Below the pieces are notes generated by a model. It was not told where the DNA came from. It worked only from the letters and a program-made list of their open reading frames with translations, and made no database searches. Both the position numbers and the translations under genes were made by a program. From a virus (taxonomy: Duplodnaviria; Caudoviricetes), in the IMG/VR virus record IMGVR_UViG_3300010966_000053, positions 1-26,794 of that record: a DNA stretch of 26,794 bases. One strand, given 5' to 3'. This document shows positions 3,219 to 24,378 of the stretch, piece after piece. Numbering within the stretch: the stretch's first letter is position 1; each line of letters begins with the position of its first letter.

Positions 3219-3590
3219 GTGTCGGACTTTATCCAAAGTCTGGCTGACGTGATTCCCTCCAATCTCCGCAAGGAGGTTGAGAGGGAACTTCGTTTCGGTT
3301 GGAATCAACAAGAAATCAAAGCAAAGGCTGACGCTAAACAGACAGCCATCTATGGTCATGCAAATGCTGCAAAGGCAATTGAAGGCGTAGGCCAACTAAA
3401 AGCAAGAATCCCTGTTAGTGCGTTCCACTATTGGGGTCATCGACTCGGCTATGAGTGCTGGGAAGATAAGCAATTCGTCAACGAGTTCATTAGGGACAAC
3501 CCAGAGGTAGCCGTCCGTAATCGAATGAAAAGAACAATGGTTAATGGTGCCGCTGGCATCTTTGACTCCTCTGGAACCCTTATCAAATGA
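3219..3590 (+). CDS. Conserved-type phage protein downstream of the capsid gene, function unknown
   Basis: 123 aa, GTG start 5 nt after the capsid stop. Motif ARIPVSAFHYW...WEDKQFVNEFIRDNPE resembles small proteins following this capsid family. Stop overlaps next start (ATGA). Confidence 0.65.
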   Translation: MSDFIQSLADVIPSNLRKEVERELRFGWNQQEIKAKADAKQTAIYGHANAAKAIEGVGQLKARIPVSAFHYWGHRLGYECWEDKQFVNEFIRDNPEVAVRNRMKRTMVNGAAGIFDSSGTLIK

Positions 3591-4435
3591 GAACCATTGA
3601 CTTCGAGACTATTCTCGCTCAATCACTTCAGATTGCCGGCCTTGACAGAGAGAATCTGACAGCCCAGTCATTTAGGCAGATTAGAGACTTTGCCAACTTC
3701 AGACTCAAGTTTGCTTGGGAGTATGATGTCTGGCCGGACCTCGTTCGCACCACCCTATTCCCTGTTACCAAGAGTGGAGCCATCTACTCGGTTAACATAC
3801 CCTCTAATGGGGTCGTAGTTAACTCACAGGGCACGTTTAAGGTCGATGTGGGCGATATCATGCAAGTTACTGGTGAAGACCCCAGAACGACTGGAAGAGT
3901 CAAGGAAATCGGCTTCTCGACAGACGAGCAGGATGTGCTTGTGTCTGGCGACGTCTATACGACGTCCAGACGACTTATAATTGACAATGCTAACTATTCT
4001 GAAGTCTATTTGACATACAGAATCAACTGTCCAGAACTTATTGGCGAACTCTGGACTGAACAGACATATTACCCCGGACAGGTGGCATATTGGGCATATC
4101 AAAACCTTAAATACTTTGCACCTACAAGCGGAGCGTCTGCTGGAAGCAAGAAAGGCAACTTCTGGAAGTGCATAGTTGAAGGCAATACCGTGCCGAACCT
4201 TGGCAACCTAAACAACCCTACTGCCGGAGACAAATGGGAAAAGGTAAAGATTCCCGCAATCTTCGGTCAATACATCATCAAGGGCATTCATAGTGATTGG
4301 CTTAAGTCTGAAATGCAGATTGAATTCGGCATGAATGCAGACAAGGAGGCCAATGCTTTGCTTGACTTGGAGATTCAAAAGTGTATTGTCCAGCAAGGTA
4401 TTCAGCCCAGAATGAAATTTAACAAAATATACTAA
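3587..4435 (+). CDS. Head-tail adaptor / tail tubular protein A-like
   Basis: N-terminal helices (ETILAQSLQIAG; FANFRLKFAWEYDVWP), beta-rich middle, C-terminal IPAIFGQYIIKG...A helices as in podovirus adaptor proteins; synteny. Confidence 0.7.
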   Translation: MRTIDFETILAQSLQIAGLDRENLTAQSFRQIRDFANFRLKFAWEYDVWPDLVRTTLFPVTKSGAIYSVNIPSNGVVVNSQGTFKVDVGDIMQVTGEDPRTTGRVKEIGFSTDEQDVLVSGDVYTTSRRLIIDNANYSEVYLTYRINCPELIGELWTEQTYYPGQVAYWAYQNLKYFAPTSGASAGSKKGNFWKCIVEGNTVPNLGNLNNPTAGDKWEKVKIPAIFGQYIIKGIHSDWLKSEMQIEFGMNADKEANALLDLEIQKCIVQQGIQPRMKFNKIY

Positions 4436-4437
4436 TT

Positions 4438-4740
4438 ATGTCTCACATTAAGATTTCCTCCCCCTTCTTTTCCAAACTTACGCACGAAGAAACCACAATC
4501 GGCACCGCTGTTTCTACCGTTATTTCTGCTGTAAATCCTGGCGAAAAGCGTATCCTGCTTGTCATTCAAAATAAGTCGACTGACGTTATCACGGCTATCC
4601 TTAGTTCTGATGTTACCGTTACGGTCGGAATTGACATTCAACCTAATCAGTTGATTTCCTTTGACAATTACAACGGCACCCTTCGTTGTAAGTCTGCCGG
4701 TTCTTCCAGCCTTGTTCATGTAGCCTTTGCTAATGTTTAA
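4438..4740 (+). CDS. Small beta-rich virion protein (decoration or spike-base-like)
   Basis: 100 aa, alternating beta pattern with RILLVIQNKS...GIDIQPNQ motif; lies in the structural operon. Confidence 0.55.
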   Translation: MSHIKISSPFFSKLTHEETTIGTAVSTVISAVNPGEKRILLVIQNKSTDVITAILSSDVTVTVGIDIQPNQLISFDNYNGTLRCKSAGSSSLVHVAFANV

Positions 4741-5986
4741 TAGGCTCAGAAAGTTAAATGGTATTGGCAGAGCATTCTTTGATAGTCTGAGTTTTGCTGG
4801 GCAGCCGCCAGTCGTTAACCCTCCTTATGGAACGGTTCTTTCGACTGCTTGCGGTAGCGAAGTTGGACAAGGGCAACCAGACAACTACTACGACGCTCTT
4901 GGCAATCCTTGGAATGGAATGTTCAAGAAATATAACCTCATTGCAGATGGCAATGGTGGTTCTATGTGGGTTGGAGTTTCCGATAACGCAAATCCGTGCT
5001 ACTATCCGTATGGATATGTAACTTCCGGAGTTTTCGATGGTGCTGCCAGTCTGAGTTGGAACTATGGAGGTGTTTCTGGAACCTATGTCTGGGGAGTTAC
5101 TTGGGATTATTACTATTCCGACGGTGCTGGCGGGGAAGTTCATACGGCAGGTGTTATTGAAAACAACCCGCAAGGTTGGAACATTAGCGGAGAAAACAAT
5201 TGGGCTGAAGGCTACATGGCCTATGTGTCAGTAGGACAATCTGCCTTCTGGTATAACTATGGTTACTACCTTGGTGACCATTTTTACAGCAACGATTATA
5301 CTACAGACTGCTGGACCGTATCTATTGGTGGATATACTAATTATATCTATGCAGACGGTTACGGCGGAACCTTTGAATCTTTTGCCGGCGGTGGATGGAA
5401 TTCATCTGGAATAATTGGATACTGCAACGACTACGAATACTATCACGATGGAAATGGGAACGTAACTTCTAATTACGTTGGCGGAGGCGGAGGCGGAGGT
5501 TCTAGTTATCCTTCTTATGGAACATACCTAGACGGAAGCAGCAGCCCTATTACGACCAACATTTCGTATGATGGATATGTAGATGGAAATTATCAAAGCA
5601 ATAATACTGATATTTCAATCGGATACTCTTATAGCAATAACTACGCAGACGGCAATGGAGGTTCGTATAACGAGTCTGGAAGTTATTACGATTATGCTGA
5701 CGGCTCGGACATCTTTACTGCTCCGTATGGAACCGAACTAAAGACTAACTGGGATTACAATGGTCCTGACGGTTCTTACAATGGAACTTTCAAGTGGGCT
5801 GACGAAGTTGGAGTTTGGAAGATTAACCAAGGCTCTACCTACATGGATAGACTTTACGTCGCACCGCTTGTTAGCGATGGTCATGTCATCTGGGAAAGTC
5901 CGGGTTGGGCTGGAGAAGGTGGCCAGTATAAGACTCAAATTATCCTTCAAAACGGTGCTTGGTTTAGCACCACAATCACATTCTAA
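4733..5986 (+). CDS. Tyr/Gly/Asn-rich repeat protein, probable surface or receptor-binding protein
   Basis: ATG at 4733 overlapping the previous stop is preferred over TTG 4727. Repeated (A/S/H)DGxG(G) and PxYGTxL-like motifs, Gly7 linker at 5480-5500. Confidence 0.6.
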   Translation: MFNRLRKLNGIGRAFFDSLSFAGQPPVVNPPYGTVLSTACGSEVGQGQPDNYYDALGNPWNGMFKKYNLIADGNGGSMWVGVSDNANPCYYPYGYVTSGVFDGAASLSWNYGGVSGTYVWGVTWDYYYSDGAGGEVHTAGVIENNPQGWNISGENNWAEGYMAYVSVGQSAFWYNYGYYLGDHFYSNDYTTDCWTVSIGGYTNYIYADGYGGTFESFAGGGWNSSGIIGYCNDYEYYHDGNGNVTSNYVGGGGGGGSSYPSYGTYLDGSSSPITTNISYDGYVDGNYQSNNTDISIGYSYSNNYADGNGGSYNESGSYYDYADGSDIFTAPYGTELKTNWDYNGPDGSYNGTFKWADEVGVWKINQGSTYMDRLYVAPLVSDGHVIWESPGWAGEGGQYKTQIILQNGAWFSTTITF

Positions 5987-5988
5987 CT

Positions 5989-6183
5989 ATGGCTAAAATT
6001 GACATCCCCAAGGGCTGGACTGCTTTCTTCCAACCTACTACAAAGAAGGTTCTTGGACTCACAGAGTTTAAGAATGGCGGTAAGGCTGATACGGCACTTA
6101 CACTTATCAATAAGAATACCAAGGAAGAAGTTCTTGCTGAAATCAAGAAACTGAACCTTAATTACACCGAACCTACCAAGTAA
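5989..6183 (+). CDS. Hypothetical protein, 64 aa
   Basis: ATG 2 nt after the previous stop; codon usage matches neighbours. Confidence 0.65.
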   Translation: MAKIDIPKGWTAFFQPTTKKVLGLTEFKNGGKADTALTLINKNTKEEVLAEIKKLNLNYTEPTK

Positions 6184-6184
6184 T

Positions 6185-6310
6185 ATGATTATCGCATTTA
6201 TCTCTTTTATTGTCGGATTTTCTGGCGGCCTTTGGGTCGGTCTGAAGAACGGCAAGTCCTCAAAGGTTGAAAAGGCCAAAAGCCTTCTTGACGAAATTAC
6301 AGGAAAGTAA
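6185..6310 (+). CDS. Small single-pass membrane protein, 41 aa (not in the ORF track)
   Basis: Translates as MIIAFISFIVGFSGGLWVGLKNGKSSKVEKAKSLLDEITGK*. Fills the gap exactly: starts 1 nt after the upstream stop, and its TAA overlaps the next ATG (TAATG). Confidence 0.75.
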   Translation: MIIAFISFIVGFSGGLWVGLKNGKSSKVEKAKSLLDEITGK

Positions 6311-7908
6311 TGGCTCAACAGGCACAGGGTAAAACTGGAGAACTTTCGGACGGGGACCAAGGATTCACTGGTTTCAATTCGAGAGACAATCCGACTGTGC
6401 TTAGTCCTGGGACTCTTTCTCTGAGCCAGAACTTCAGACTTAATAGAGGCATTGCTACGGCTAGAAAGGGGCTTAAAAAACTCCTTAACGTCAATACCTC
6501 TACTTATGGTATCCGTCATGTCGCTGCTTTTAGAAAGTCTGACGGAACTGACATAATAGTCCTAATTTGCAGGCTTGGACTTTACGTTTTTACTCCAAAT
6601 ACTGGTGCAATTACCGGACCTGTTCTATATAACTCCTATGGGACGATAGAGGACACCGACAAGGTTGACGCATTTCAAGCACTTGGTAAACTTATAATCC
6701 TCAGAGGCTTTAACAAGAAGCCACTTATCTGGGATGGCAATTCTACTATTACGGACGCTGGAACTACATCAAAGTTTATGCCTAACTCCGAACAGGGCAT
6801 ATATGTCAATAATAGGGCAATAGTTCAAAGTTCTTCTGATGAACTGTCCGTCTCTCACTATCTGAATATTGATAAGTTTGAGTTAATGGATGTGTTTAAG
6901 ATTAACGACGGCTCCAATGATTCAATCACGGCTATTGCCCCTTGGGTTCTTAACGAATGGGTCGTATTCATGCGTAACCGCATCTATTACGCATCTGTCG
7001 GTGCTGGTGCGTATAACGCTGGAGACCTTCCTGTTGCCGGAGATTCTTATGTCAAGGTTCTCGCTACTGACATGGGTTGCGTTGCAAAAAGAAGCATCAC
7101 ACAGGCTGGCGGTGGAATGATGTTCCTGTCTGACTCTGGAGTGTATGCTTTCACCCCTCAGCAAGCCACTACGCCCGAAGGTATGCGTGCTGGCGTAATC
7201 GGAGAGCCTCTTTCTGCACCGATTGAGGATATCATATACCGCATCAATCAGAACCATGTAAGCAAGGCTTGTTCTGCCTATTACAATAATAGATACTATC
7301 TTGCCGTTCCGCTTGATGGTTCTACTGTCAATAACGTAGTTCTTGTATTCAACTTTGTTAATAAGCAATGGGAATCTATTGACACATTCCCTCCAGGGAT
7401 TGACATTCAGTCCATGTTCACCGCAAACTATGACGGAAAGAAGCGACTGTTCTTTACCGACAAGGACTACGGTATTTATCTTGCCGAAGAACTGCAAGAG
7501 GGGGACAACTTCAACCATTCGACCATTAATAACGTGTTGCCGGTGATTCTCAGATTCTTCCTCAGAGATGAAATCAGATGGAGCATCTATCCTATTGATA
7601 GCAAGATTCATACACGCTCTTACAATTTTGGAATGAGTGAGGATAAGCGTTATTCGCAGGTTGAACTCGATATGAGACTGCCTTTGGCTACCTATACGAA
7701 GACCTCGTATATTGCTCAAAACCCAGACATTGAGGTTCAAATAGACGAGTTTGGTGCTCCCGATAACTATGCCAGCGTAAGAGACTTGCCAATTCGCAAA
7801 ATTGCGTCATCTTGTATAATCAAAGTTCAGTCCTTTAATGGTGAGGCCAATATTAGGTCTCTAGCCATTACTGCGATGAGAACAGGAACAAACATCCGTT
7901 CATCCTAA
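6310..7908 (+). CDS. Tail nozzle / tail tubular protein B-like (P22 gp10-type beta-propeller)
   Basis: 532 aa, beta-rich. Motifs FTGFNSRDNP, SQNFR...RKG, DMGCVAKRSI...MMFLSDSGVY, PLSAPIE, YYNNRYYLAVP...NNVVLVFNFVNKQW are characteristic of podovirus nozzle proteins. Confidence 0.8.
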   Translation: MAQQAQGKTGELSDGDQGFTGFNSRDNPTVLSPGTLSLSQNFRLNRGIATARKGLKKLLNVNTSTYGIRHVAAFRKSDGTDIIVLICRLGLYVFTPNTGAITGPVLYNSYGTIEDTDKVDAFQALGKLIILRGFNKKPLIWDGNSTITDAGTTSKFMPNSEQGIYVNNRAIVQSSSDELSVSHYLNIDKFELMDVFKINDGSNDSITAIAPWVLNEWVVFMRNRIYYASVGAGAYNAGDLPVAGDSYVKVLATDMGCVAKRSITQAGGGMMFLSDSGVYAFTPQQATTPEGMRAGVIGEPLSAPIEDIIYRINQNHVSKACSAYYNNRYYLAVPLDGSTVNNVVLVFNFVNKQWESIDTFPPGIDIQSMFTANYDGKKRLFFTDKDYGIYLAEELQEGDNFNHSTINNVLPVILRFFLRDEIRWSIYPIDSKIHTRSYNFGMSEDKRYSQVELDMRLPLATYTKTSYIAQNPDIEVQIDEFGAPDNYASVRDLPIRKIASSCIIKVQSFNGEANIRSLAITAMRTGTNIRSS

Positions 7909-7909
7909 T

Positions 7910-9100
7910 ATGCCTTCTCAAATCTCACCCCCTATCGAATATTTTGACGGAGACCCTATCAATGCGGAAGCGTTCAATGGTCATGTCAAAAATGCCACAC
8001 TTCAGAACGGCTCTATTACAGAGCAGACTGCTATTACTGACTCCGTTATTCCTACGATTGACAGACTTGATAGCCTTGTTGTCTATGACGAATCTGAAGT
8101 TACTACGAATAAACTGAGAAAGGTGCAGGTTGAAAGTCTGTTTAGTTCTGGGGCTCCGGTAGTTGCCGATTACATTGAGACATCCGTAATTAACGCAGAG
8201 GCTGAATCTGACATTGATGTAACTCCCTATGTCGGCATCCTTGTTTCCGGTAAGAATTACTTCTCTTTAGACGGACTCACAGTAACAGTTACATCTACTG
8301 AACACGGATTTGAGTCTGGAACGCTGGTTGAGTTTTATAGTTCTTCTCCTGTTGACCATACTGGAAGGTTCCAGATTACGGTTCTTACTGCTGATACGTT
8401 CAGTTATAACAATGGTAAGACGGTTGCTGCTGCCGCCGGAAGCGGAGTCCTGTCCTACAAGAAGGCTGCTACTGTTAATCTGATTGGCAATCTTATTGTT
8501 AACGACGACTCTAGGGTTGCTGGAGATTCGTTTATTGGTGGAAACCTAAAGGTTGATGGTTCTGCCAGCGTAGGTTCTCTTACAATCGGAGGCAAAACTC
8601 CGCTTACCCAAGAAGACAGTTTCCTTGGAATTAACATAAAGACGGTTACGCTTCCCAATGGAACGGCTTTTGGAACTGTTGACTATCAAACACAATCGTT
8701 TAATGTTCCTCCTGGCGAGACTTGGACTTTTGTTTGGACTGCCATTACTGACCAATATAACTCAACTGGAAATACAAGACCTAACGTTGCCTATACTTGG
8801 AATATCTTAGTTGGAAGCCTTACTGGTTCGCTAGTTGATACTGCTGCTGCCGGGAATCAAGGATACGGAGGAACATCTTCTGTGTCCAGAAGCATTGTTG
8901 TAAGAAATGAAGGAACAACTGGAAATACGCACCAAATCATCTCTCCTACTGTTAATATGACATATGCTGGAACCATGAATCTTACTTGGTCTGCAAAGCC
9001 TCCATACGGATGGAGTAAGTGGGAAAAGGGTCATATTAATCTTATTTTATTCAGACAAAAAACTGCGTCCATTAACTACGGACATCCTCAAGTTCTTTAA
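7910..9100 (+). CDS. Tail fibre / tail spike protein
   Basis: N-terminal anchor-like region, VTVTSTEHGFESGTLVEF...TFSY module (FCCH-like domain common in phage tail proteins), short beta-helix-like run (GNLIVNDDSRVAGDSFIGGNLKVDG), Thr/Gly-rich beta C-terminus. Confidence 0.65.
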   Translation: MPSQISPPIEYFDGDPINAEAFNGHVKNATLQNGSITEQTAITDSVIPTIDRLDSLVVYDESEVTTNKLRKVQVESLFSSGAPVVADYIETSVINAEAESDIDVTPYVGILVSGKNYFSLDGLTVTVTSTEHGFESGTLVEFYSSSPVDHTGRFQITVLTADTFSYNNGKTVAAAAGSGVLSYKKAATVNLIGNLIVNDDSRVAGDSFIGGNLKVDGSASVGSLTIGGKTPLTQEDSFLGINIKTVTLPNGTAFGTVDYQTQSFNVPPGETWTFVWTAITDQYNSTGNTRPNVAYTWNILVGSLTGSLVDTAAAGNQGYGGTSSVSRSIVVRNEGTTGNTHQIISPTVNMTYAGTMNLTWSAKPPYGWSKWEKGHINLILFRQKTASINYGHPQVL

Positions 9101-9104
9101 TTTT

Positions 9105-9968
9105 ATGGGCTTTACACCAATCGCATTTAGACCGTTCATGAATAAGGGGAGTGCTGCTCCCGATTATGGCGAGTTCCTCACCAAAGACGCACAACAGTAT
9201 TACAACGAAAGTGCCGGTGCCGTCGCTGCCCAAAAGAAAATCATACCTGCAACAATCAATGCAGAACGTGATATTCTTGGAGGCCTTCAGCAGTATCAAG
9301 CAGAGAGAATGGGCAGTCAGTCCAGAAACCTTCTTGGACAGTATGCCGATATGCAGGGAATGGCCAATGAGAGACAGAGTGAGTATCAAGGACAACTTCT
9401 TGGTATGTATGGTGGTGCTGGCGGAATGGCGACCGACTATGCAATTCAAGGTCTTGGTGCCGGAGGCCAAGGAGTGTATAATCAATTCATGCAACAGGCC
9501 AACATGGGTCTCGGCATGGGTTCTCAACTTAGTTTTGAAGACCAACAGGCATCCCAGCAGACCGCAAGAGCAGCGATGGCTGCTAGAGGTTTGACAGGAA
9601 ATCAAGCGGTTGGCCAGGAAGTTCTGAACTCCTATCAACTCGGGCACCAGAGAATGCAAGAGCGTCAACAGATGGGTATGCAAGCGATGCAGATGGCTCA
9701 ACAGCAACAGCAGTTTGGTCACCAAGCGTATCTTTCTCCCTCTATGCAACAGTCTCAGTCTATTTATGGACTTCCCTCCCTGTATGACAATACACAAGGT
9801 TCTTTCCAAAATATGGCTCCTCAGTTTATCCAACCCGAGTCTCAGTATCTTGCCAATATCCGTGGAAACCGCATCTCTCAAGAGAATGCAGACAAGGCGG
9901 CAAAGGCTCAGAATCAAGCGGGTATCGTTGGTGGCGTGGCAACCGTTGCGGCTGCTTACTTCATTTAA
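9105..9968 (+). CDS. Internal virion / DNA ejection protein (small)
   Basis: Gln/Gly/Ala/Met-rich helical sequence, ARAAMAARGL motif, hydrophobic C-terminus GIVGGVATVAAAYFI; follows nozzle and fibre genes as in podovirus ejection clusters. Confidence 0.7.
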   Translation: MGFTPIAFRPFMNKGSAAPDYGEFLTKDAQQYYNESAGAVAAQKKIIPATINAERDILGGLQQYQAERMGSQSRNLLGQYADMQGMANERQSEYQGQLLGMYGGAGGMATDYAIQGLGAGGQGVYNQFMQQANMGLGMGSQLSFEDQQASQQTARAAMAARGLTGNQAVGQEVLNSYQLGHQRMQERQQMGMQAMQMAQQQQQFGHQAYLSPSMQQSQSIYGLPSLYDNTQGSFQNMAPQFIQPESQYLANIRGNRISQENADKAAKAQNQAGIVGGVATVAAAYFI

Positions 9969-10768
9969 TGACAAAAGAACAAAGAAGCCTAGAGATAATT
10001 CAGCGAGGCTTGTCGATGTCAAACAAGTCGGCAGTTGCTTGGTCTGGTGGGAAGGACTCTATGGTTCTTCTGCATCTGATGCTTAAGACTGGACGTAAAT
10101 TCCCTATCATTTTCTTTAGGGAGCCGTGGCAACCTTGGAAGTATAAGTTCCAAGACAGGATAATCCAAGAGTATGGCCTTGAGTCCTATACTTGGCACCC
10201 TCAGTCTTCCTCGTTCCAGCAAACCGGAGACGAGTTTGAGGTCCAAAATGTCTATTCGTTTGATACAACCATTGTAACCTGTCCTAGCGGCATTACAAAG
10301 CCGGTGGACGGAAAGCCGTGGGTTTGTGCTATTGATATGCTCAAACGCCCCAAACAGATGAATCTTATGTCTGGTTGGGATATGGTTTGGGTGGGACACA
10401 AGGCCTGTGATAGCGACCCTATTTATGGTGGCGACGCTGGCACTAGAACTGAAGTAAGGGTAGTCCCAGGACAGGCTACAATGATGTTCCCCCTCCGAGA
10501 TTGGACACACGAAGACATCTGGAACTACACCATCGCCAACAATATTCCTATTGACCTTGATAGATATGAGCAGGTTGACGGAAAGTGGGGCGAGAAAGTT
10601 GACAAATTAACCAACGTTGACTATGTTCACGCTTGCACCTCTTGTATTGATAGAAGGAATACGGCTAACAAGTTCGTATATTGTCCGAAGTATGACGGAG
10701 TAGTCGAAAACTGCTCAGATAAACTTCCTTGGTTCAACCAGACAATCCCTTCTTATATGAAGGACTAA
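9968..10768 (+). CDS. PAPS/APS-reductase-fold (adenine nucleotide alpha-hydrolase, PP-loop) protein
   Basis: PP-loop AWSGGKDSMVLLHL (SGGKDS at 10043-10060), WVGHKACDS, FPLRDWTHEDIWNY and CTSC match the CysH-family layout. No C-terminal ECG(L/I)H motif. Confidence 0.88.
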   Translation: MTKEQRSLEIIQRGLSMSNKSAVAWSGGKDSMVLLHLMLKTGRKFPIIFFREPWQPWKYKFQDRIIQEYGLESYTWHPQSSSFQQTGDEFEVQNVYSFDTTIVTCPSGITKPVDGKPWVCAIDMLKRPKQMNLMSGWDMVWVGHKACDSDPIYGGDAGTRTEVRVVPGQATMMFPLRDWTHEDIWNYTIANNIPIDLDRYEQVDGKWGEKVDKLTNVDYVHACTSCIDRRNTANKFVYCPKYDGVVENCSDKLPWFNQTIPSYMKD

Positions 10769-10785
10769 TTTAAACCTACACTTAT

Positions 10786-13578
10786 ATGCCTGCCCAAAAT
10801 CAACCCAACCCCGGTGGTATGTTTTCCAGATACCAGTCTGAACAAGTAAATCAAATTCCTGCTGGATATATGGAAGGTATGTCTTCTTGGGGTCGTGCTG
10901 CTCAAAGCCTTGGTAGCAACATTGCCAACATGATGGCTCAGAACAGAGCAGAAGAGCAGAATACTAAGTCTAACGCTCTCAAGACCGGAGAGAACGCAAT
11001 CAACGAACGAAAGGTAGCCGCCGCCGAACGAGCCAATGTCATCAAGGAGGGCATGGCTGATACTGAATCTACATACAAGGCATATACTGCTGTTCTTGCC
11101 GCCGATGAGTCTGGATATAAGAGAATTTCTGAAAGCAACAAGGCTCTTGATGCCCAATTGGAATACTTTGGCAATATCCTTAAAGAGCCCAAGTCTTCTG
11201 AGGCCGACAAAGCGGCAGCACAAAAGAAGGTCAACGAACTTACTCCGCTTAAGAAGCAAGCACTTGAGGGACTTACAAGATACCTTCAAAACACTCCTCC
11301 TTCTTACGACCAGTTCCTTACTGACAGAAGAAAGGCTGGTGCAGACAGACCTGTTATCAGAAACCCCGACGGAACACGTAGCGTCCTCAATCCTGTTCCT
11401 GGGGTCAAGCCCTTTGAGACCCCCGAGAAAAAAGGGTCTCCCGACAGCAAGGAACCTATCTCGTATTACACATCTCCTGCTTTCAATCCCGCACCTATTA
11501 CTGGCGAACGACAGGGTGTTACAAAAACAGTAGCATACGGAGGTTCCGCAAAAAAAGTCGAACTGGTGGGGGGAAGGGTTTCTTCCGTCACTTCACCGGC
11601 GGGGAAGAAGACGGTTCTGGGAAGTTTTCTGCCTGAAGAACACCTTGCTGGTGCTACTGAGTTTTCTGAAGCAAGCGTTGATGCTTCCAATACTGATGAC
11701 CCTCATCTGAATCCGCAGACTACTGCGGAAGAAAACCCTGCACCGATTGAAAGAGTTGAAGTTCCTGGCCCCCTTGGAAACAAGATAGTCCAGACTGAGC
11801 CGCTTAAGGCTATCGAGACATCGCTCACTCCGAGTGTTCCTGTAAGCGGGACAATCATCTTTGAAAAGAACACAGATTCTGCTGGAACAGTCACAAAGAC
11901 TCCCAGAATCATGTTCAATACAAGTGCCCTTCAGAATGCTGATGGAACACCCAATGAAGTTGGAGTCAGAACGCTTAGACAACTAACTCTTATTAATGAA
12001 GTGTTACAGGGAGGAACGCATAAACTGGTCAAGCCTACTCAAGAAGAAAGAGATAGTGCCAGAGACTTGTTTGGAACGCCGGAGAACGCCTTTGACCTTC
12101 CCGAGATTTCTTCGGCTTGGGCTGTCGTCAAGAGAAACACCGACAAGGGTTACAAGGGTTTTGACTCTACTGCCAATAATTTCACCCTGTCATTCCAGCA
12201 GAAGTATGGGATGTTTCCGTCCCAGTTCATGGTTAACGGAGAACAGGTCAATCAAGAGGAAATCGTTGCAGATGCAAATGTCGCCCTTGAGTCCACCGCA
12301 TCTGCCAGACTTGCTAGCAGATTTGAAAGCATTGGTAGTGCCCCTCAAAAGCCTACAGGTCTTCAAGAGTCTATTGATAACGTAACAAAGCAACTTGCTG
12401 AATCTGAAGAAAAGATTGCCAGACTTACAAAGTATCTCAGCAGCCCCCTTATTGTTGGGTCTGATGTCGAGACTTCTTACAAGAATGAACTTGGTGCTGA
12501 AATGAAGAAACTGACCGTTATTCAAGCGAAGGCACAGCAGAATCAGATTGTCAGTTCTAACTACGATATCGACCTCAAGGCTTACGAAGCAAAGCGTAAC
12601 GCTGTTGAGCAAGAACTTAAGGTTGATAAACTTGCACAAGACCTAGCCACGGGCAGGGTTGAGCAATCCAAGGCTGTTAGAGTTCTCCGAGAGGGATGGA
12701 TTGGAACAGAGCCAGAACATTTAGTCATGACCAATGGATTTATTGCCTCCAAACTTAAGTCCATCAAGGGCAAGACTGGTGCCATTCCTATGACTGACAG
12801 GGACGGCAATCCGATTATGGTCATTGACAGATTTGGCAACAAGGTTCAAAAGACATATCAAGACAGACTTGATGCTCCGGAACTCATGTCGCATCTTCTT
12901 AGAACTAAGCGTTATGACCTAATTGACTCCCTGTCTTCTGGTATGCCTAATGCTGAAAATCTCAGCAATCCGAAGACTGGAATCATGGATGCCCAGTTTA
13001 AGTATAACGAGTCTCTTGTTCCTATCAGAAAGTTGGCTGAAATGAACGACAAGTATGTAGCGTTGGCCTCCAAGGGGTTGACTGGTGAGGCTAAGTCCTA
13101 CTGGAACAGAATGTGGTATGAAGCCGAAGATGCGGCTGGAACCACATATCAAAAGACGCTTATTGGTAAGATTCGAGAAGCAATTGTTGGTCCGGGCAAT
13201 CCGTCTAACTATGAACAAGAGGTCATTGCATCTATTGTTCCTAATCCTACGGATGTCCTTACAAGACCCGAAAGACAAAAGGCTAGAATCAAGGCTCTGG
13301 CTACCATTGCCATTCTTAACCATTATAACCGAATGCTTGCTAACAAACTTGAGGCAACACCGGAAACCTATAAGATGTATAGTGACCAACTTAGTGGTGT
13401 TCTTGGATTCCCTGTTACTGAGGAATTCTTCACTGGTATGAGAAACGACTATACTAGGTCCAGACAGGTTTACTCGAACAATGAGGCCATTGGTAATGAG
13501 AACAAGTCTATTGCGTCTGACTACGCAAACCGACTGCTTGACACCCTTGAGGCTAGAAGTGCTCCTGCCAAGAAGTAG
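10786..13578 (+). CDS. Internal virion / DNA ejection protein (930 aa)
   Basis: Mostly helical with coiled coils and Pro-rich linkers. C-terminal IVGPGNPSNYEQEVIASIVP resembles motifs in podovirus ejection proteins; synteny. Confidence 0.65.
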   Translation: MPAQNQPNPGGMFSRYQSEQVNQIPAGYMEGMSSWGRAAQSLGSNIANMMAQNRAEEQNTKSNALKTGENAINERKVAAAERANVIKEGMADTESTYKAYTAVLAADESGYKRISESNKALDAQLEYFGNILKEPKSSEADKAAAQKKVNELTPLKKQALEGLTRYLQNTPPSYDQFLTDRRKAGADRPVIRNPDGTRSVLNPVPGVKPFETPEKKGSPDSKEPISYYTSPAFNPAPITGERQGVTKTVAYGGSAKKVELVGGRVSSVTSPAGKKTVLGSFLPEEHLAGATEFSEASVDASNTDDPHLNPQTTAEENPAPIERVEVPGPLGNKIVQTEPLKAIETSLTPSVPVSGTIIFEKNTDSAGTVTKTPRIMFNTSALQNADGTPNEVGVRTLRQLTLINEVLQGGTHKLVKPTQEERDSARDLFGTPENAFDLPEISSAWAVVKRNTDKGYKGFDSTANNFTLSFQQKYGMFPSQFMVNGEQVNQEEIVADANVALESTASARLASRFESIGSAPQKPTGLQESIDNVTKQLAESEEKIARLTKYLSSPLIVGSDVETSYKNELGAEMKKLTVIQAKAQQNQIVSSNYDIDLKAYEAKRNAVEQELKVDKLAQDLATGRVEQSKAVRVLREGWIGTEPEHLVMTNGFIASKLKSIKGKTGAIPMTDRDGNPIMVIDRFGNKVQKTYQDRLDAPELMSHLLRTKRYDLIDSLSSGMPNAENLSNPKTGIMDAQFKYNESLVPIRKLAEMNDKYVALASKGLTGEAKSYWNRMWYEAEDAAGTTYQKTLIGKIREAIVGPGNPSNYEQEVIASIVPNPTDVLTRPERQKARIKALATIAILNHYNRMLANKLEATPETYKMYSDQLSGVLGFPVTEEFFTGMRNDYTRSRQVYSNNEAIGNENKSIASDYANRLLDTLEARSAPAKK

Positions 13579-13622
13579 TATTAAATACTTGCTATTTATT
13601 GACAAATAAGGACTATAAGCAA

Positions 13623-16600
13623 ATGGCTGAACCGCTTAAAACTACTCCGACAAAGTTGCCTGTCGAAGCCAAGAACCCAATCGCACCCTCCAAAGTAGAT
13701 ACTGCTCCTGTTGATTTGACAGTAAAGGCTGCAATTGATAATGCCAATGCTACAAAGGAGAGGCCTCCGTTTATTCCTATCCAAGAGGGTCAAGATACGT
13801 TCATTGAACCTGCCTTTACCATTCTCGGAACAGAAGCGAATTCACAGGCTTTCGCCAATATCGTCGACAAGAGCAACCCGCAGGGTGTCATTATTCACAA
13901 TAAGGTTAAATATGCACTCAGGGACAAGGAGTCGGTAGATAAGAGACACGCCAAGTGGAAGGCTGACAGAGAACTGCAGGTTGCAGGTGCTCCGAGGGCT
14001 GGCGGACTTACAGATAGACTTACTGGTGGAACTGGTGTCACTTCTGCTAATCAAGAAACTAAGGAGCCAGTTCTTCATCCTTTTTCCAGTTACCTTACTT
14101 CGTTTGGCAAGACTGACGTTGAGGTTGTAAGCGGCCTTGCCAGAGCACAACTCAGAGCACAGTCGTATGCCGACAAATATGAAAAAGCCGGCGTTGCCAA
14201 ACTAATAGAGTCTGACGATTCCCTGCTTTCTGCCCCAGATGCGTTGTTTGATGCCATGAAGAACATTCCTGGTATGTTTGCAAACAAGACGGAAGAAGAG
14301 TTCTTCAAGGCTGGTGCTGGTAGCAAGTATGCTGGCAAGTATGAGACTAGTCCGTTCCACCTTCTTCAAAGGAAGCATATGGGCAAGTATAAGGGAACGA
14401 TGCATCCGTCGCAGTTAAAGATTAACATCGACGAAAACGGATTCCGACTTAACCCCAAGAACCCGGAACATCAAAAGATGTTCAGAGAGTATAACACTTG
14501 GGTTGAAAACCACCCAGACCTTAAGCCCCTCGTTGACAGAGCACAGGAAAACTTCAGCACAGTCGGCAAGATGCTGGTTGATTCTGTCATAAGAACTGTC
14601 TATACATCCGTCTCCTCGATTGGAGACCCGGAGATTGATTGGCATCCCGACTTTAAGGATGAAGACGCTAAAAAGGCACTAACAGACAAGTTGCTTATTC
14701 TTGCCTCTGCAAGAAGCAACGGAGAGGTTCTTGATGGATTTACTGAAGATACGGCATTGCACATGGTTGAGAAGAAGTTCGGAGAAACTGGTGCAATCGA
14801 CATGGACCTGTTTGACGAAGATGCGAAGAAGAAGATGCCTGACATTTTGATTGAAGTTGCAAAGCAGGTCAAGGAACTCGATTCAAAGGGTGCGTTCAAG
14901 AAGGACATCAGAGGCCTGTCGTCGGCACTAACTGTCATGTCTTCTATGATTACTGGCGGTATTGGACTTGGAATGATGGCAATCAACTCCGACCCCAATT
15001 CTTACTCGATGAGAGTTATCAACGGCTTCCATACTGGAAGAGTATGGGCTGGTGCTGACTTTAGCCCTGCCGACCCGGATTCCTCCCTCAATATTCAACA
15101 GATTTACGAGCAGATGCAGATGCAGGGAATGAATACTGGTGCTGATTATGCTACTTGGCATCACCATCTTTCCAAGGAAGGTATCTTTGGCTCTGCGGTG
15201 ATGGACACAAGATATCACGAAAATGGCAGTCATTGGCTTACTCCGTTTGAAGGTGCAGCCCTTCTTGCTGGCGGATTCAGAGCAGGAAAGGCTCTTACAC
15301 TAAGAGGTGCCAGAGGTGCGGGTGTTTCCAAGAACTTCCTTGAAAGAATAGGCCTGCAGGAAAGTCTAGACGTTACCCTTGAAAGACTTAATACGCTCTC
15401 CAGACAGGGAGTTCCGTTTGCAGAGGGAATGGTTGACCTTGAAATCAAGGCTATGATTGATGACATCAAAGCACAGGGTGCTGCCGCAGGAGAAAAAATT
15501 GATGACTATGAGGCTATCAAGAGAGCCTATGAAGGAAGAGGAAGAGTTCCTCATAAGAGAGACCCTCTCAGAATGGTGAAGGCTCCGGAAGAGGTTCTTA
15601 ACAGACTTAGTGGAATTATTTCCACCAAGGCTGAAAGCGTAGCCACGATGCGTGATGCAATCCTTGAAGCAGCCAGAGAGGGAAGAAAGATTACCTATAG
15701 CCCCAAGGTGATGGAAACCATCACAAAGGCTCGCAAAGCACTTCAAGAAGCGAATCCCGATATTGATTGGAGCGTAGTCCCAGATAGCGTAGTTTATGAA
15801 AGAATTAGAAACAATGCCATTCCTCTGACAAAGGGCGTTGAAACGCTTTCTCAAAACGAAATCAGAGCAATGTCGCAAGAGGTTGGAAGAGTTTGGAGAA
15901 AGGTTGATGCAAAAGACCTTGCTGGCTACAAGCGAGGACAGGCGTTGCCGATTCAAGTAAATTGGGTATATGACAACTTCTTCACCAACATAGCGACTGG
16001 CGCGCTGAGAACTGGTAGCAGATTTGCAAACTGGGTAGATGAACTTGAAAAGGTATATGGTAACCCGAGAAGCGGACTTAACGCTATTGGAAAGATGTCT
16101 AGCGCACCCGGAGTCGCCGCAAGCACACTTCAGTCTCAAGGCAACGGACTGTTCAGATTCGCAATGGCTAATGCAATCATTCCCGCACTTCGATTCATGG
16201 GAACGATAGGAGAGGCAGCAGAGTTCTTGCAGGATTTTGAAACCATGAACCAGAGAGCACTTGGTCATGACTTTAATTCCACGCTTCTTGGTATGCGTAA
16301 TAACTACAACAGGGAGATTAGAAAACTTCTTGTCAGAAGAGCGTCCGTAAAAGGTGGAGATTGGAAGGAAATCAGAGAAAGACTTATTGAAAAGGGAGAG
16401 ACAGTTGCACTCGACGAACCGCAGTTCATCGGAAGTTCTGTCAATGCCGACAAGGAACTTATTGATATTGATGCCAGGATTACCTACCTTGAGGCAAAGT
16501 CCCTTTGGGCGAAGAACATTCACGCATTTGGTGCCAATGGAGCACTTGCTGGTGCCACCAAACTATTCAGAGACGGCATGGTGTCATCTGCTAGCAATGA

Positions 16601-19600
16601 AATGTTGCTCGGAATTACTGACAATTTCGCAGGATTTGGTGGCGGAACAGCCTATGCTGGATTTGGAAGCACGACCAATGCAATAACATCCGGATGGACT
16701 GCTCACTTCGGAAAGAATGCAATTATCAGAGAAAGAACAAACCATGACTTCATGGAACTGAGAAACAGACTTGATAACATGGGTCAAGACCCAGCAGGAG
16801 ATGTTCAGAGAATGAAACTTCTAAAGGTCATGGTTGCTGCCAGAGACAAGGCTGATATTATTTCTGCCGAGAAGGGCGAGAAGGCTGCCGAGGTGTTCTT
16901 TGCTAAGGAAATCGCAACTCTTGCCAATCTCTACAGAACCAACGCAGATGTTCATATTACAAATGCCGACGTAAGACAAGGGCTGGTTGCCTTGATGGAA
17001 GGCCTTCAATTGCAAGACCCGGATTTCGTTGATGAAATCAAGACTCACTATCTCAGCGTTGCTAACAAGATGGGAATGAAGGGCGATGCCGCTACTGCAT
17101 ATGCCAAGCAAATGCTTAGTGCTATCGTTGAGAGTAACGCTGCTACTGTTAGAAGCGGAACAATTGGCAAGGAAAGAGGATTGCTTGAAGCCGCAAAGCA
17201 GAGACTGATTGAAACGACTGGTGCTGAACTTGCAACGCTTAGTGCCGGTGCTGAAGTCCTTGCAAGAGAGGCTGGACTTAATACTGAGCAACTCTTTTCT
17301 GCAGGATTCCACACGACGGTAACGCAAGCAGAAAACATAGATACAACCTCTTACGGAATTCCTCACAAGGGAAGGCAGCGTCCTACTCCTTTTGGCGGAA
17401 CGGACACGCCGATGCCGGAAATCATCGGAGGTGTGGACACAAGCGGAATGACTGGTCCAGTCATTGACAAACTCAAGGCCTTCAGAAGTGAATTCAAAAG
17501 AATCAAGGCACTTGAACTTGAGAACAACATCAAGATTAAGGACATTAACCAGCAACTTACCGACCTTGCAGACGAGGCTGGCCAGATTGGTAGAGTTAAG
17601 CGTATTGCTCCGTTCAGAGATGGGCAGATGACAATTAATCCGCTTGATGGCTCCTCTTTCACGTCTCACAAGAACGGCATTACCGTGTGGGAAAAGGACG
17701 GAAGAACCTCCGTGTTCGTAGATGAAGAGAAGTTCTCTATTTCCGATGCCAGAGAAGAAATAGCACACGCAATCTTCTATACCGAGAACATGAAGGATTC
17801 TAGAGCACAACTCAGAAACATAATTCTCGGAGAAATTACGGTTGACCAAAACGGAACCAGACAGGTCAAGTCCGCCCCGCTAATCGCTGAAACGATTGAA
17901 GGCTCTCTTGCCTTGATGGATAAGTTTGTTGATGCACACGCATCCACATTGAGCGAAAGTGATTCCGTGTGGTTTAAGGCGACTTGGAATAGAGGAAAAA
18001 AGAACTTTGAGAGAAATGCTGACGACACCAGACTGATGCAGTCCGTGTTCGTCGAGTTTGCCGGAAGACTCTATCAAGCAAGAATGGAACTTGCCAACCC
18101 CCACATGACCAGAAGCGACCAGCAGGGTTCTACTGGAGAGGGAAGCATTGAGATGGGAAGCATCCCAATCAGACAGAAGCAGATTACCGGAGAAGACAGA
18201 GAGACAAGACTGAAAAAGTTGACATCTGGAAACAGACTGATTAGCAAACTTATCCTTGGCGACTTGAGAGTTGAGGATATTGTTAATGACGGCAATCCTA
18301 TCAACGCTACAGATGTTGACCTTGATGGTAAGCATTCCACCGCAAAGTTTGGAAACGGAGATAGCATCAGAGATGCCGCTAGATTCATCTTGGCATTCGG
18401 TGCTGGAGGAAAGATTGATGAAATGTGGAGATTTATCAGCGAGGAAAGACTGTCCATGATGGGTTTCATCAAGTCTGGAAATAAGTCTCCCGACTATACC
18501 AAGTTCTGGGAGCATGGTAAGATTCGCCATCCTGTCAGCGGAGAACTGCTTGACATTGACCCCGCCCTTATGGGTTGGGCTGAGCAGATGATTGCTCACA
18601 CACGAAACAGGGGTAGTTCGCAGGATGTTGATGCACTTACTGACCTTGAATCCGTATTCAACGAAAGAGAAGACTCCAGCGATGGTGCCAAGCGTAGAAG
18701 ACTGATGTGGGCACTTGCTTCTGGTCGAAAGAAGTTTATCAACCCAGAAACTGGAATGTTCAGAGCGTCTCTTGCTGAAATGATGCATTCTGAGTGGCAA
18801 CCCCTTGGGTCTCTTATCCAAAGAATCATCACTCCCAGAATCGGAGAAGATGGAGACTGGTCCGGCATGAAGGTCAAGAAGACTGTTGACGGAAAGACAG
18901 TTCTTATCGGTGCTCCTAACGTTGCCCAGACAAGACGAATCATCGAACATATCAAGGAGAACTACGGTCAGTATTCCGAGGGCAATGAAGTTGTCATGAA
19001 GAACATTGCCATCTTCCTTGAGGCAATCGCAGACGGAAACAGATTCGACCCTAAGTCGAGAGACGTAAAGGATGGCGGTGCTCCGGGTTGGACGCAGGTG
19101 TTTATCGCAGAATACTCTGGCGTATGGCAGGGCAAGGGAGTTGGAACTACCAAGAAGACAAAGGTTGGCGGAACCATGCCCCAGCAGAGAATGCTTGTTC
19201 CGTTGAGAGTAATCATTAGAGACTCCAACTTGGATGCTCTCGGTAAGAAGAAGACCCCTAATGAAGAAAGCGGAGAAATGCCAGGTATGCCAGAGATGTA
19301 TTTCGAGATGTATGACCCTGTTGCTGGAAATACAGCCAGAGAGAACGCATGGAATGGCAACCTGTTTGATGCTGGCGGTAGCAGATACTGGACAGAGAAT
19401 CAGATTCGTAAGATGTTTGGAGACTCCAAGAAGAACCTTAAGGCTGCTTGCGACATGGTTCTTGAGAACTATCAAAACGGTGGTTCCATTGCCAGAAAGT
19501 CCACAGAAAGACCTCCGCAAGAATCTTGGGAAGTTCTACTTGATTTGGCTGACGGAAATCCTGGCGAGGCGAAAAAGATGGCTTCTATGGTCAATCGAAT

Positions 19601-23730: not shown

Positions 23731-23978
23731 TAGTTCTTGATTTTCTTGTAGTAAGGGATGCTGATGATGGAACCGCTTTCAGACTTAACACGGAACAACT
23801 TACGCTCCAACTTGCCCTCCTTGGCTAGTGCTCGCAGTTTCTTACGAACAATCCACAGGGAACGATTCATCTCCTTGGCACATTCCTGCGTAGAGAAGAA
23901 ACCCTTCGGGATTTCGTCTATGCTCTTTTGCTGAAGTTCCCAGATGAGAAGTTTAAGAAGTGCGTTTGGTGTTTTCAT
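23730..23978 (-). CDS. Winged-HTH-like protein
   Basis: Likely start ATG 23978 (MKTPNALL) after an A/C-rich leader. FSTQECAKEMNRSLWIVRKKLRALAKEGKLER followed by a beta hairpin. Confidence 0.65.
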   Translation of the reverse strand: MKTPNALLKLLIWELQQKSIDEIPKGFFSTQECAKEMNRSLWIVRKKLRALAKEGKLERKLFRVKSESGSIISIPYYKKIKN

Positions 23979-24378
23979 TTTGTTTGTTGTGTCTTGAATG
24001 CCAGTTACGGCAAGTTGTTTTTCGGTCAATCCCCTCTCTGACGCACCAGTTATATACTACCGATGTGGATGAGTTAACCTTTTTGGCGATGTCCTTATAT
24101 AGCATACCCTTCTTGGTCATTGGAAGGATAATCTCATGCCATTTGGATTTATCGACATTCGACCAAGGTTTCTTATGGAGAAGTTTTATGCCAAGTATCT
24201 TAATCCATCGCTTTAAGGTATCTTCTGATATGTTCATGGCGATAGCCATATCTACCATATTAAGTCGCTCCTTCTCGTTAAGACGAATCAGTTCCTTCTC
24301 TGCGGCAACAAGACGCATGAGAAGTCCTTGAGTAATGGTATGATTATTAAACTTAACTGTCGGGTGATTATTCCCCAT
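23953..24378 (-). CDS. Protein with two HTH-like motifs
   Basis: Likely start ATG 24378 (MGNNHPTV). LNMVDMAIAMNISEDTLKRWI and GMLYKDIAKKVNSSTSVVYNW both fit the HTH pattern. Confidence 0.65.
   Translation of the reverse strand: MGNNHPTVKFNNHTITQGLLMRLVAAEKELIRLNEKERLNMVDMAIAMNISEDTLKRWIKILGIKLLHKKPWSNVDKSKWHEIILPMTKKGMLYKDIAKKVNSSTSVVYNWCVREGIDRKTTCRNWHSRHNKQNENTKRTS

Follow-up and report, generated by a model that had tools for sequence, protein, structure and literature searches.

Phage genes labeled 'cysH' or 'PAPS reductase' are widely counted as auxiliary genes of sulfur metabolism, and ecological conclusions are based on them (PMC13369170; PMC12647753). The closest described cassette is that of the Bcep22-like phage JC1 (Lessievirus; OM283127), with the gene order N-acetyltransferase (gp63), virion protein (gp64) and 'PAPS reductase' (gp65). 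In the available text of the JC1 report, gp65 is read as a sulfate-reduction moron, with no functional test reported there, and its virion proteomics table (Table 6) contains gp64 and does not list gp65 (PMC9144972). The sequence of gp64 ends GLGTVAGAGIMAF.

The window analyzed here (26,794 nucleotides of a caudoviricete genome, IMGVR_UViG_3300010966_000053) carries a similar cassette, in the same slot behind the head-closure gene. The features of the locus are as follows.

6310–7908, plus strand: tail nozzle/head-closure-like protein, 532 aa, start of the conserved block (phrog_3287, E 2e-11; phrog_578, head closure, E 2.4e-4).
7910–9100, plus strand: virion-type protein, 396 aa, placed by gene order; no family match.
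9105–9968, plus strand: likely substrate, a small ejection-type protein of 287 aa that is rich in Gln, Gly and Ala and gp7/gp14-like by position (173 homologs; role from gene order).
9921–9968, plus strand: hydrophobic tail at the C-terminus, GIVGGVATVAAAYFI-stop, where recognition by the enzyme is predicted (from the co-occurrence of Ile end and enzyme).
9966–9970, plus strand: TAATG stop/start overlap, by which translation of substrate and enzyme is likely coupled (67 of 76 junctions have this −1 overlap).
9968–10768, plus strand: PP-loop enzyme with PAPS-reductase/CysD/FAD-synthase fold, 266 aa (profile matches and structural model).
10043–10060, plus strand: intact PP-loop, SGGKDS, residues 26–31 (99–100% conserved in a 187-sequence alignment).
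10325–10684, plus strand: four near-invariant Cys residues (C120, C223-x-x-C226 and C239), predicted to form a single metal site, 4Fe-4S or Zn (123 distant relatives).
10786–13578, plus strand: ejection-type protein, 930 aa, gp20/gp15 slot (gene order in relatives).
13599–21662, plus strand: ejection-type protein, 2687 aa, gp16 slot by position and size only; no family match.

The overall organization is similar to that of JC1. In both, a homologous enzyme (hhalign probability 97%, with PP-loop and CxxC in gp65) immediately follows a virion protein whose C-terminus is hydrophobic, and the Gly/Ala-rich end of gp64 (…GAGIMAF) is very similar to the tail of the 287-aa protein. The first-pass annotation had named this the best candidate for an undescribed system, which has to be qualified, as a similar cassette already carries a sulfate-reduction annotation in Bcep22-like phages. 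On the other hand, gp64 aligns with the 287-aa family over the tail only (probability 15%), and the N-acetyltransferase slot of JC1 has no gene in the window. A GNAT-like gene, which some podoviruses carry near this position, was not found there, and the small genes (107–180 aa) that most relatives carry between the 396-aa slot and the ejection gene, absent from the window, gave no GNAT evidence.

The enzyme gene starts inside the TAATG shared with the upstream stop and ends 17 nt before the gene for the 930-aa protein, as previously noted. The neighborhood check suggested at that time gave a fixed context over 76 distinct junctions, and most enzyme loci have a relative of the 532-aa nozzle protein a few genes further upstream. 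The earlier assignment of the neighbors as ejection proteins is consistent with gene order and composition, but none has a family match; the 287-aa protein gave no match in Pfam, PHROG or NCBIfam.

The enzyme matches PF01507 (PAPS_reduct) with E 5e-14 and 53.1 bits, above the gathering cut-off of 22.5 bits. Both the SGGxDS motif (WSGGKDS, residues 25–31) and the PP-loop (adenine-nucleotide alpha-hydrolase) superfamily fold are present. Its best NCBIfam models are those of CysD (1.7e-12), and all are far under their own cut-offs. The curated CysD models score 47.2 and 41.7 bits against cut-offs of 195 and 396.6. The CysH and APS-reductase models score 36.9 against 154 (PRK02090), 21.6 against 165 (TIGR00434), 20.5 against 235 (TIGR02055) and 15.8 against 254 bits (TIGR02057), and TIGR03183 (DndC/SspD/BrxP) scores 15.2 against 290 bits.

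The fold is shared with the APS/PAPS reductases (CysH), but the enzyme lacks their adjacent CC pair as well as the ECG(L/I)H tail, which in these reductases carries the catalytic Cys. This tail is also absent from the consensus of 45 relatives. The CC pair and the CxxC are the cluster ligands of APS reductase, and C120 and the CxxC of the enzyme occupy these positions in an alignment through JC1 gp65, with C120 on the first Cys of its CC pair. JC1 gp65 keeps the pair, whereas the clade of the window has one Cys there and a fourth at C239. Residues S26, G28, K29, D30 and S31 are kept in 120–122 of 123 distant relatives, and C120, C223, C226 and C239 in 123, 122, 122 and 122 of them. The first-pass annotation had correctly described the PP-loop, the missing reductase motifs and seven Cys residues (105, 120, 147, 223, 226, 239 and 249). 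Its C-terminal Cys cluster is not an addition, as C120 aligns to the CC pair and C249 (the 'NC' Cys) is variable in distant relatives, where only the four survive.

The structural model of the enzyme (pLDDT 95) is closest to CysD, a subunit of ATP sulfurylase (1zun, Z 15.7), and FAD synthase (8rom, Z 15.0), with rms distances of 2.8 and 3.1 over 158 residues and 20–25% identity. A second structure comparison also ranks CysD and then FAD synthase at the top. The APS/PAPS reductases 2goy, 4bwv and 6vpu have Z scores of 11.6–14.2, so that the gap between CysD and APS reductase is just 1.5 at its closest. Residues 223–266, which include the CxxC…C segment, are outside the CysD and FAD synthase matches. 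By this model, the fold is nearest to enzymes that transfer AMP from ATP through an intact PP-loop. Their acceptors are sulfate or FMN, in comparison to the protein end proposed below, and the CysN partner of CysD has no match among the scanned ORFs. Motif and fold support the earlier view that the enzyme is ATP-dependent.

A true sulfur-metabolism function, as an APS/PAPS reductase or a CysD-like ATP sulfurylase for late cysteine supply, would agree with the database and literature labels (phrog_424; PMC9144972; PMC13369170; PMC12647753), with the CysD top match, and with the retained CxxC and one Cys of the CC pair. The missing tail and the low scores argue against it. Sulfur-assimilation and dnd/ssp families gave no match among the 26 ORFs of the window or among 25 further ORFs of a near-identical complete genome (G011; from a list of 35 ORFs of at least 110 aa), and no CysN/CysC or other partner was matched among these scanned ORFs, many of which have no match at all. 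Moreover, the presence of the enzyme is predicted by the end of a neighboring structural protein (see below). We consider this function highly improbable, in agreement with the first-pass annotation, and the sulfur label is probably wrong for the enzyme family (384 clusters at 50% identity, E up to 1e-10, with gene context checked for the nearest group).

Judged from the sequences, the presence of the enzyme goes with the type of C-terminus found on the upstream ejection-type protein. Upstream of the enzyme, the last residue is Ile in 74 of the 76 distinct junctions and Phe in the other two. The terminal codons are ATC (41), ATT (33) and TTC (2), so that the residue is fixed at the protein level, and Ile is still last in six junctions with a 37-nt gap. 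Enzyme-linked tails end (A/V/I/G)-(L/A/F/M)-I. Among 160 scorable loci fetched via the ejection protein, the enzyme is present in 45 of 45 with the hydrophobic Ile-ending form and in 0 of 115 with other forms. Of these 115, 32 are fused to a CFI-box-like domain, 19 to S74 and one to Hint, and the other 63 have a polar/basic tail; the enzyme is found with none of the four. It was not found elsewhere in nine near-complete genomes of the other forms, in which a positive control was detected. In a second locus set, which includes phages of 60–85 kb, 11 upstream proteins (126–200 aa) that miss the ejection-protein profiles end -LI (10) or -LF (1), an end seen in just 2 of 563 other ORFs of enzyme loci.

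A tree of the 160 ejection-protein cores, built without the tails, has at least 27 state changes, and tail state and enzyme agree in 24 of 24 independent pairs (p 1e-7). However, these pairs are cassette swaps and not independent selection of tails, since similarity between close enzyme-plus and enzyme-minus pairs stops 10–105 nt before the stop codon and returns at the next gene. Because the tail and the enzyme gene are transferred jointly, as a single cassette, the correlation is weakened, and the case rests more on the Ile kept across divergent cassettes than on the 24 pairs.

This linkage is real, and the enzyme could be a passenger that rides with the last ~20 codons by adjacency and acts on DNA, through DndC-like adenylation or phosphorothioation, or on a nucleotide. 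The fold serves DNA phosphorothioation in DndC/BrxP in the available text of PMC12839542, the DndC model matches the enzyme with E 0.0075, and a DNA methyltransferase is also present in the window. But linkage does not explain why all 76 junctions, with or without overlap, keep a terminal Ile or Phe while its codons vary synonymously, nor why other phages have -LI/-LF ends on proteins of a different kind. Cysteine desulfurase (PF00266) was found in 0 of 5 complete enzyme-bearing phage genomes, in a scan that detected 14 of 14 controls, though a host desulfurase could stand in, and dnd/ssp families have no match among the scanned ORFs. This explanation is therefore unlikely, and the same holds for the sulfur-metabolism and DNA-modification readings in general.

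The fused domains lie at the same position of the cassette, immediately after the same tail, and never occur together with the enzyme; they are ATP-independent, unlike the enzyme. Peptidase_S74 (PF13884), which is known to release a free end, is the only one of the three above its cut-off. NF041770 (CFI-box-CTERM) matches the CWVAREVYG domain with 15.0 and 14.2 bits (E 0.016–0.028; cut-off 40 bits), spanning the whole profile in two of three tested domains, hence the name CFI-box-like. This domain is modeled as a small bundle of helices, and its best structural match (Z 4.5) is uninformative, which does not support self-cleavage; in addition, a Lys often precedes its Cys (10 of 32). The Hint class consists of one distinct locus and database proteins, with Pfam E of 0.003–0.16, under the cut-off. 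Its members (L216/L217, P0135 and P0195) have an N-terminal Cys and an x-x-x-H block by eye, with PF01079 scores of 17.7 and 11.9 bits compared to 29.7. The chemistry of these fused domains may differ from one to the next.

An enzyme found, in the related phages analyzed, only with a greasy tail that ends in Ile (rarely Phe), and replaced elsewhere by fused domains or a charged tail, points to ATP-dependent capping of this tail and away from sulfur assimilation. An intein between D30 and S31 in one relative of the enzyme, and the fusion of two relatives to a SET domain, a protein-modifying partner, are in line with this. On balance, we consider it somewhat probable that the enzyme adenylates the terminal Ile carboxyl of the upstream protein and passes the activated end on to an acceptor, so that a tail destined for the membrane is capped. 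The upstream protein would be a small membrane-inserting ejection protein, and the enzyme would act inside the host cell, at the time of late expression, rather than in the virion. ATP would be used to form an acyl-adenylate on the free C-terminal carboxyl, and the activated end would pass to an acceptor, preferably a small nucleophile that removes the terminal charge (an amide- or thioacid-type cap), with a second virion protein or a lipid as further candidates. With its carboxyl free, a hydrophobic tail inserts poorly into a membrane, and Tsp/Prc and ClpXP recognize non-polar C-termini as signals for degradation; a capped tail may avoid both problems. Other answers to this in relatives would be a domain fused after the tail (Hint, S74 or CFI-box-like) and a tail of polar/basic type.

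The proposed chemistry is like that of E1/ThiF/MoeB, which adenylate the C-termini of ubiquitin-like proteins, but those enzymes have a different fold and a Gly-Gly substrate end in place of the hydrophobic Ile tail. The PP-loop fold is bound to a protein partner in TtuA–TtuB (5gha) and Cap9–CdnD (9nto), with Z scores of 7.6–8.2 to the enzyme model; both belong to other subfamilies, and neither is a phage virion-maturation enzyme. TtuA binds the TtuB C-terminus, which it uses as a sulfur donor for tRNA, unlike the enzyme proposed here, and Cap9 modifies a protein N-terminus.

As a PP-loop enzyme that modifies a protein, Cap9 ('Cap9-CdnD complex containing NDG modification') would also be a precedent for a different virion target or site, such as the N-terminus of either neighboring ejection protein, upstream or downstream, with head-to-tail cyclization as one form of this. 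Most relatives of the upstream protein start Met-Gly. In a further variant, the enzyme itself would be packaged and injected. However, the MG[SGKA] start follows the small upstream gene (109 of 131 with it, 0 of 22 without) and not the enzyme, which is present in 7 of those 22. The downstream gene is unchanged with or without the enzyme, and the 930-aa protein is not the enzyme-tracking part, because its relatives follow in either case. JC1 gp65 is missing from the virion table (PMC9144972). Such targets are decidedly improbable. Thus, among the options raised by the first-pass annotation, modification of an ejection protein is retained, with the C-terminal Ile of the 287-aa protein as the predicted site, and modification of DNA and injection of the enzyme itself are disfavored.

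Alternatively, the enzyme could be a chaperone in trans that binds and shields the hydrophobic tail until packaging, much like a fused S74 or helical domain in cis, with ATP and metal in structural or regulatory roles and no covalent mark. The stop/start overlap fits 1:1 synthesis, S74 is a chaperone domain, and the CFI-box-like domain is a plain helical bundle in its model. A pure binder would not need the catalytic PP-loop residues, however, which no fewer than 120 of the 123 distant relatives retain, and the specificity is centered on the last residue. We regard this role as rather unlikely, though a little less so than a different virion target.

If the capping reading is correct, it defines a post-translational maturation step of ejection proteins with the substrate and residue named, for which JC1 gp64/gp65 is a cultured stand-in, the phage of the window being uncultured, and gives a first functional handle on CFI-box-like domains. 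The contribution of the window locus is the near-invariant terminal Ile and the CFI-box/Hint swaps. An ATP-dependent enzyme that reads a short C-terminal tag on different protein bodies would be a possible protein-labeling tool. A broader reading, possible but doubtful, is that interchangeable modules activate the terminal carboxyl of the ejection protein, Hint as a thioester in cis and the PP-loop enzyme as an acyl-adenylate in trans, and that the activated end is then coupled to a lipid, or else to a different virion protein. It would place a hedgehog/Atg8-like anchor on a protein that opens the host membrane, and a widespread class of phage 'cysH' genes would encode ligases that act on protein C-termini and use a short, portable tag (…AALI).

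The 266-aa PP-loop enzyme and the hydrophobic tail of the protein encoded directly upstream form a real, conserved two-part module. The enzyme has the fold and the motif of ATP-using enzymes, and it occurs together with a terminal hydrophobic Ile in the co-encoded protein. The window covers the late genes of a phage of the short-tailed type. A scaffold gene and the gene for an SU10-like capsid protein lie ahead of the nozzle/head-closure-like gene, which is followed by ORFs of 396, 287, 266, 930 and 2687 aa and then by a holin.

3219–6183, + strand: five ORFs (123, 282, 100, 419 and 64 aa) from the capsid gene to the nozzle-like gene, with no family match
6310–7908: nozzle/head-closure-like gene
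9072–10022, − strand: 316-aa antisense ORF overlying the 287-aa gene
13599–21662, + strand: 2687-aa protein without a Pfam, PHROG or NCBIfam match
23953–25755, − strand: opposite-strand block with an HTH protein, a metallophosphoesterase (phrog_221) and a DNA methyltransferase (phrog_757)

The antisense ORF is likely an artefact of the codon bias of the 287-aa gene. The ORF coordinates bear out the TAATG overlap at the start of the enzyme gene and the 17-nt spacing to the 930-aa ORF described in the first-pass annotation; a scan for promoters and terminators gave no usable result. The enzyme is identical in the complete 44.3-kb record G011. Its neighbours have no family match among the Pfam, PHROG and NCBIfam profiles. 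Their position, together with a small-medium-large order that matches the gp14/gp15/gp16 table of PMC8954989, makes them probable ejection proteins. The 2687-aa protein is roughly double T7 gp16 in size, and its slot spans about 1000 to 2700 aa in relatives.

The enzyme matches PF01507 above the Pfam cut-off, and all curated NCBIfam models fall far under theirs. It has SGGKDS and, as noted earlier from the sequence, seven cysteines, but neither the CC pair nor the ECG(L/I)H tail. When compared with 48,161 solved chains, the structure model (pLDDT 95) is closest to CysD (Z score 15.7, rmsd 2.8 for 158 residues), followed by FAD synthase (Z score 15.0) and the APS/PAPS reductases (Z scores 11.6–14.2); Foldseek also places CysD and FAD synthase on top. 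There are 188 near homologues, and cluster representatives number 1777, 384 and 161 at E values up to 1e-3, 1e-10 and 1e-30, respectively. The look-alikes in the ESM atlas fall in viral clusters, and the annotated phage collection gave two matches, both weak (24%).

Among the 150 representatives listed, 123 were both new and 240–320 aa long, and these were aligned as distant relatives. Residues S26, G28, K29, D30 and S31 are retained in 120–122 of the 123. C120 is present in all of them and C223, C226 and C239 in 122 each, and C105, C147 and C249 show no conservation in this set. In the alignment, C120 falls on the first cysteine of the CC pair in gp65, the homologue in the Bcep22-like phage JC1. 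Based on this alignment, and on the ligand positions of the APS-reductase cluster, the four conserved cysteines probably form one four-ligand metal site related to that cluster site and are probably no added domain. The enzyme is a member of the PP-loop superfamily related to the Bcep22-type cassette, and is not CysH, CysD or DndC. BrxP and DndC are treated in PMC12839542.

In JC1, the gene order is head closure, gp62, the acetyltransferase gp63, gp64 and the 'PAPS reductase' gp65, and the C-terminal end of gp64 is GLGTVAGAGIMAF. The virion proteomics table for this phage includes gp64, gp67, gp68 and gp69, with gp63 and gp65 absent (PMC9144972). This non-detection of gp65, in one phage, is evidence against packaging of the enzyme. 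The JC1 authors interpreted gp65 as functioning in sulfate reduction (PMC9144972), and recent surveys still handle phage cysH as a sulfur gene (PMC13369170, PMC12647753). A role in sulfur metabolism is extremely unlikely here. No paper linking the enzyme to ejection-protein C-termini was found among open-access papers.

The context of the enzyme was compared in 80 IMG/VR loci found through it, two of which were left unparsed. The order is nearly constant: nozzle-like gene, a gene of 200–690 aa, usually a small gene, ejection-type gene, enzyme, and the next ejection-type gene. The upstream proteins are 19–68% identical to the 287-aa protein of the window, and 62 of the 63 distinct ones have a terminal Ile. 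The distinct enzyme junctions carry an Ile end in 74 of 76 cases and a Phe end in two, and a similar end is found in only 2 of 563 other ORFs of these loci. A cause at the DNA level, such as the overlap or a ribosome site, is unlikely, given that the Ile codon is ATC at 41 junctions and ATT at 33, and that the six junctions with a 37-nt gap retain the Ile end. A nozzle-based scan gave nine close loci only, and a GTDB scan gave five full-length matches on short MAG contigs from unrelated taxa, from which no host was assigned.

L364–L368: cassette carried by short MAG contigs with the labels Oceanospirillum, Chitinophagales, Methanobacteriota and Oceanicoccus

These are probably mis-binned phage DNA, which places false cellular labels on the protein.

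Homologues of the upstream protein have several endings: the hydrophobic tail with its final Ile; this tail extended by a domain beginning CWVAREVYG, by Peptidase_S74 or by a Hint-like domain; or a polar/basic tail. The S74 match is above the cut-off, the Hint match is below it, and the CWVAREVYG ending has a weak full-length match, also below the cut-off, to CFI-box-CTERM (NF041770). Control loci were found through four alignments of the upstream protein. Filtering removed 29 of the 189 distinct cores: 10 were truncated by contig ends, and 19 had no enzyme match and less than 600 nt downstream. Among the remaining 160, the enzyme is the next gene in all 45 Ile-ending forms, a count that is biased as part of the 45 were first found through the enzyme, and in none of the 32 CFI-box-like, 19 S74, one Hint and 63 other forms, zeros that the bias does not affect. 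In nine near-complete genomes of enzyme-less forms, no enzyme copy was found at another place, and a control genome gave a signal. The tails of the 'other' forms are not hydrophobic: their mean hydropathy is 0.09 versus 1.69 in the Ile-ending ones, and Lys or Arg is found within the last eight residues in 52/63 versus 1/45.

In six close comparisons between enzyme-plus and enzyme-minus loci, DNA similarity ends 10–105 nt ahead of the ejection-gene stop and returns at the next gene. Tail and enzyme therefore move as one cassette. A FastTree phylogeny built from the 160 cores, with the last 35 residues removed, requires a minimum of 27 changes of state; all 24 independent pairs agree, which, given the joint cassette, counts swaps and not separate selection. 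Such mobility would suit a passenger cassette or an enzyme acting on DNA, but this reading is unlikely, as linkage leaves unexplained the fixed last residue across divergent enzymes merely 50–60% alike.

The N-terminus of the upstream protein follows a different gene.

L010:3368–3706, L021:3524–3949 and relatives: small proteins of 107–180 aa, ahead of the ejection gene

They fall into two groups of related proteins, with 69 and 56 distinct sequences, and neither has a family match. An MG[S/G/K/A] start is found in 109 of 131 upstream proteins with the small gene versus 0 of 22 without it, with seven loci that could not be scored; the window is among the loci that lack it. The N-terminus thus goes with the small gene, which sets two modules apart. 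Head-to-tail cyclisation via the N-terminal Gly is unlikely, since this start follows the small gene. By eye, both the small gene and a 120-aa C-terminal domain on three distant enzymes were guessed to be GNATs; neither guess found support in PHROGs, in the ESM atlas or in an hhalign comparison with JC1 gp63.

We lean modestly towards covalent activation of the C-terminus of the upstream protein as the predicted activity. Carboxyl adenylation is the usual first step for PP-loop enzymes acting on carboxyl groups. The enzyme would adenylate the carboxyl of the terminal Ile, and the activated C-terminus would be passed on to an acceptor. The favoured product would be a small cap that takes away the terminal charge, which may ease the tail into the membrane or mask a degradation signal at a non-polar C-terminus; Tsp/Prc and ClpXP recognise such non-polar ends. 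Ligation to a lipid or a protein is possible as well, because the Hint alternative would, by its known chemistry, form a thioester at this bond. Two points count against a chemistry shared by all endings: S74, a chaperone, leaves the end free, and the model of the CFI-box-like domain gives no structural sign of self-cleavage. That the enzyme is itself a chaperone for the tail, as S74 would be, appears quite improbable, the PP-loop residues being retained in nearly all distant relatives. No cysteine desulfurase was found in any of five complete enzyme-bearing genomes. G011 also has the following gene pair outside the window.

L459:8003–9514, − strand: amidoligase (phrog_2443)
L459:9655–10716, − strand: glutamine-amidotransferase-like gene (phrog_4736), paired with the amidoligase gene

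The latter, considered as an ammonia donor, is unlinked to the enzyme (3/5 enzyme-bearing versus 3/5 enzyme-less genomes) and was rejected as its partner.

Two of these alternative endings are the following fusions.

L142:3716–3940, L147:4865–5089 and 30 more distinct loci: CWVAREVYG domain fused behind the ejection-protein tail
L216:18–1259 and L217:40–1281: Hint-like fusion, with a Hint-like domain starting CIPSGEMIDT
P0135, P0142, P0148, P0168, P0176, P0195, P0206: proteins with the Hint-like fusion

The CWVAREVYG domain is helical and conserved, about 70 aa long, with an invariant N-terminal Cys. Its model (pLDDT 82) has an uninformative best structural Z score of 4.5 and gives no structural sign of self-cleavage. 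Its exchange with Hint and S74 suggests a possible function in processing. C-terminal sorting signals are the subject of bioRxiv 2023.06.07.544157, whose passages on them do not contain the term 'CFI'. An ejection protein with the Hint-like domain and, behind it, a short predicted helix resembles hedgehog in layout, here in a protein of the phage virion.

Some distant relatives of the enzyme also have extra parts.

P0284, P0262, P0270, P0347, P0356, P0371, P0381, P0269: distant enzyme relatives with unusual extra parts

These are a PP-loop intein (splitting D30/S31 in one relative), N-terminal SET domains (fusions in two), a TPR/glycosyltransferase-9 region, the 120-aa C-terminal domain without assignment, and a C-terminal S74-like piece.

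A further scan, seeded with a more distant enzyme subgroup, reached phages of 60–85 kb with an upstream protein of 126–200 aa. Eleven such proteins match no ejection-protein profile; behind a Gly/Ala-rich stretch, 10 of them still finish in -LI and one in -LF, and their downstream neighbours have tail-lysin/tape-measure family matches. The tag thus persists next to the enzyme on different protein bodies, which is what recognition of the C-terminus by the enzyme would predict. An enzyme acting on some other virion target is very improbable.

L388, L403, L453: contigs of 75–82 kb from this second phage group, upstream protein of 126–200 aa ending in -ALI/-VLI

In this group the enzyme adjoins a tail-lysin/tape-measure-like gene downstream. 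A baseplate-connector match lies near the enzyme in L388, and the module may therefore extend beyond short-tailed phages.
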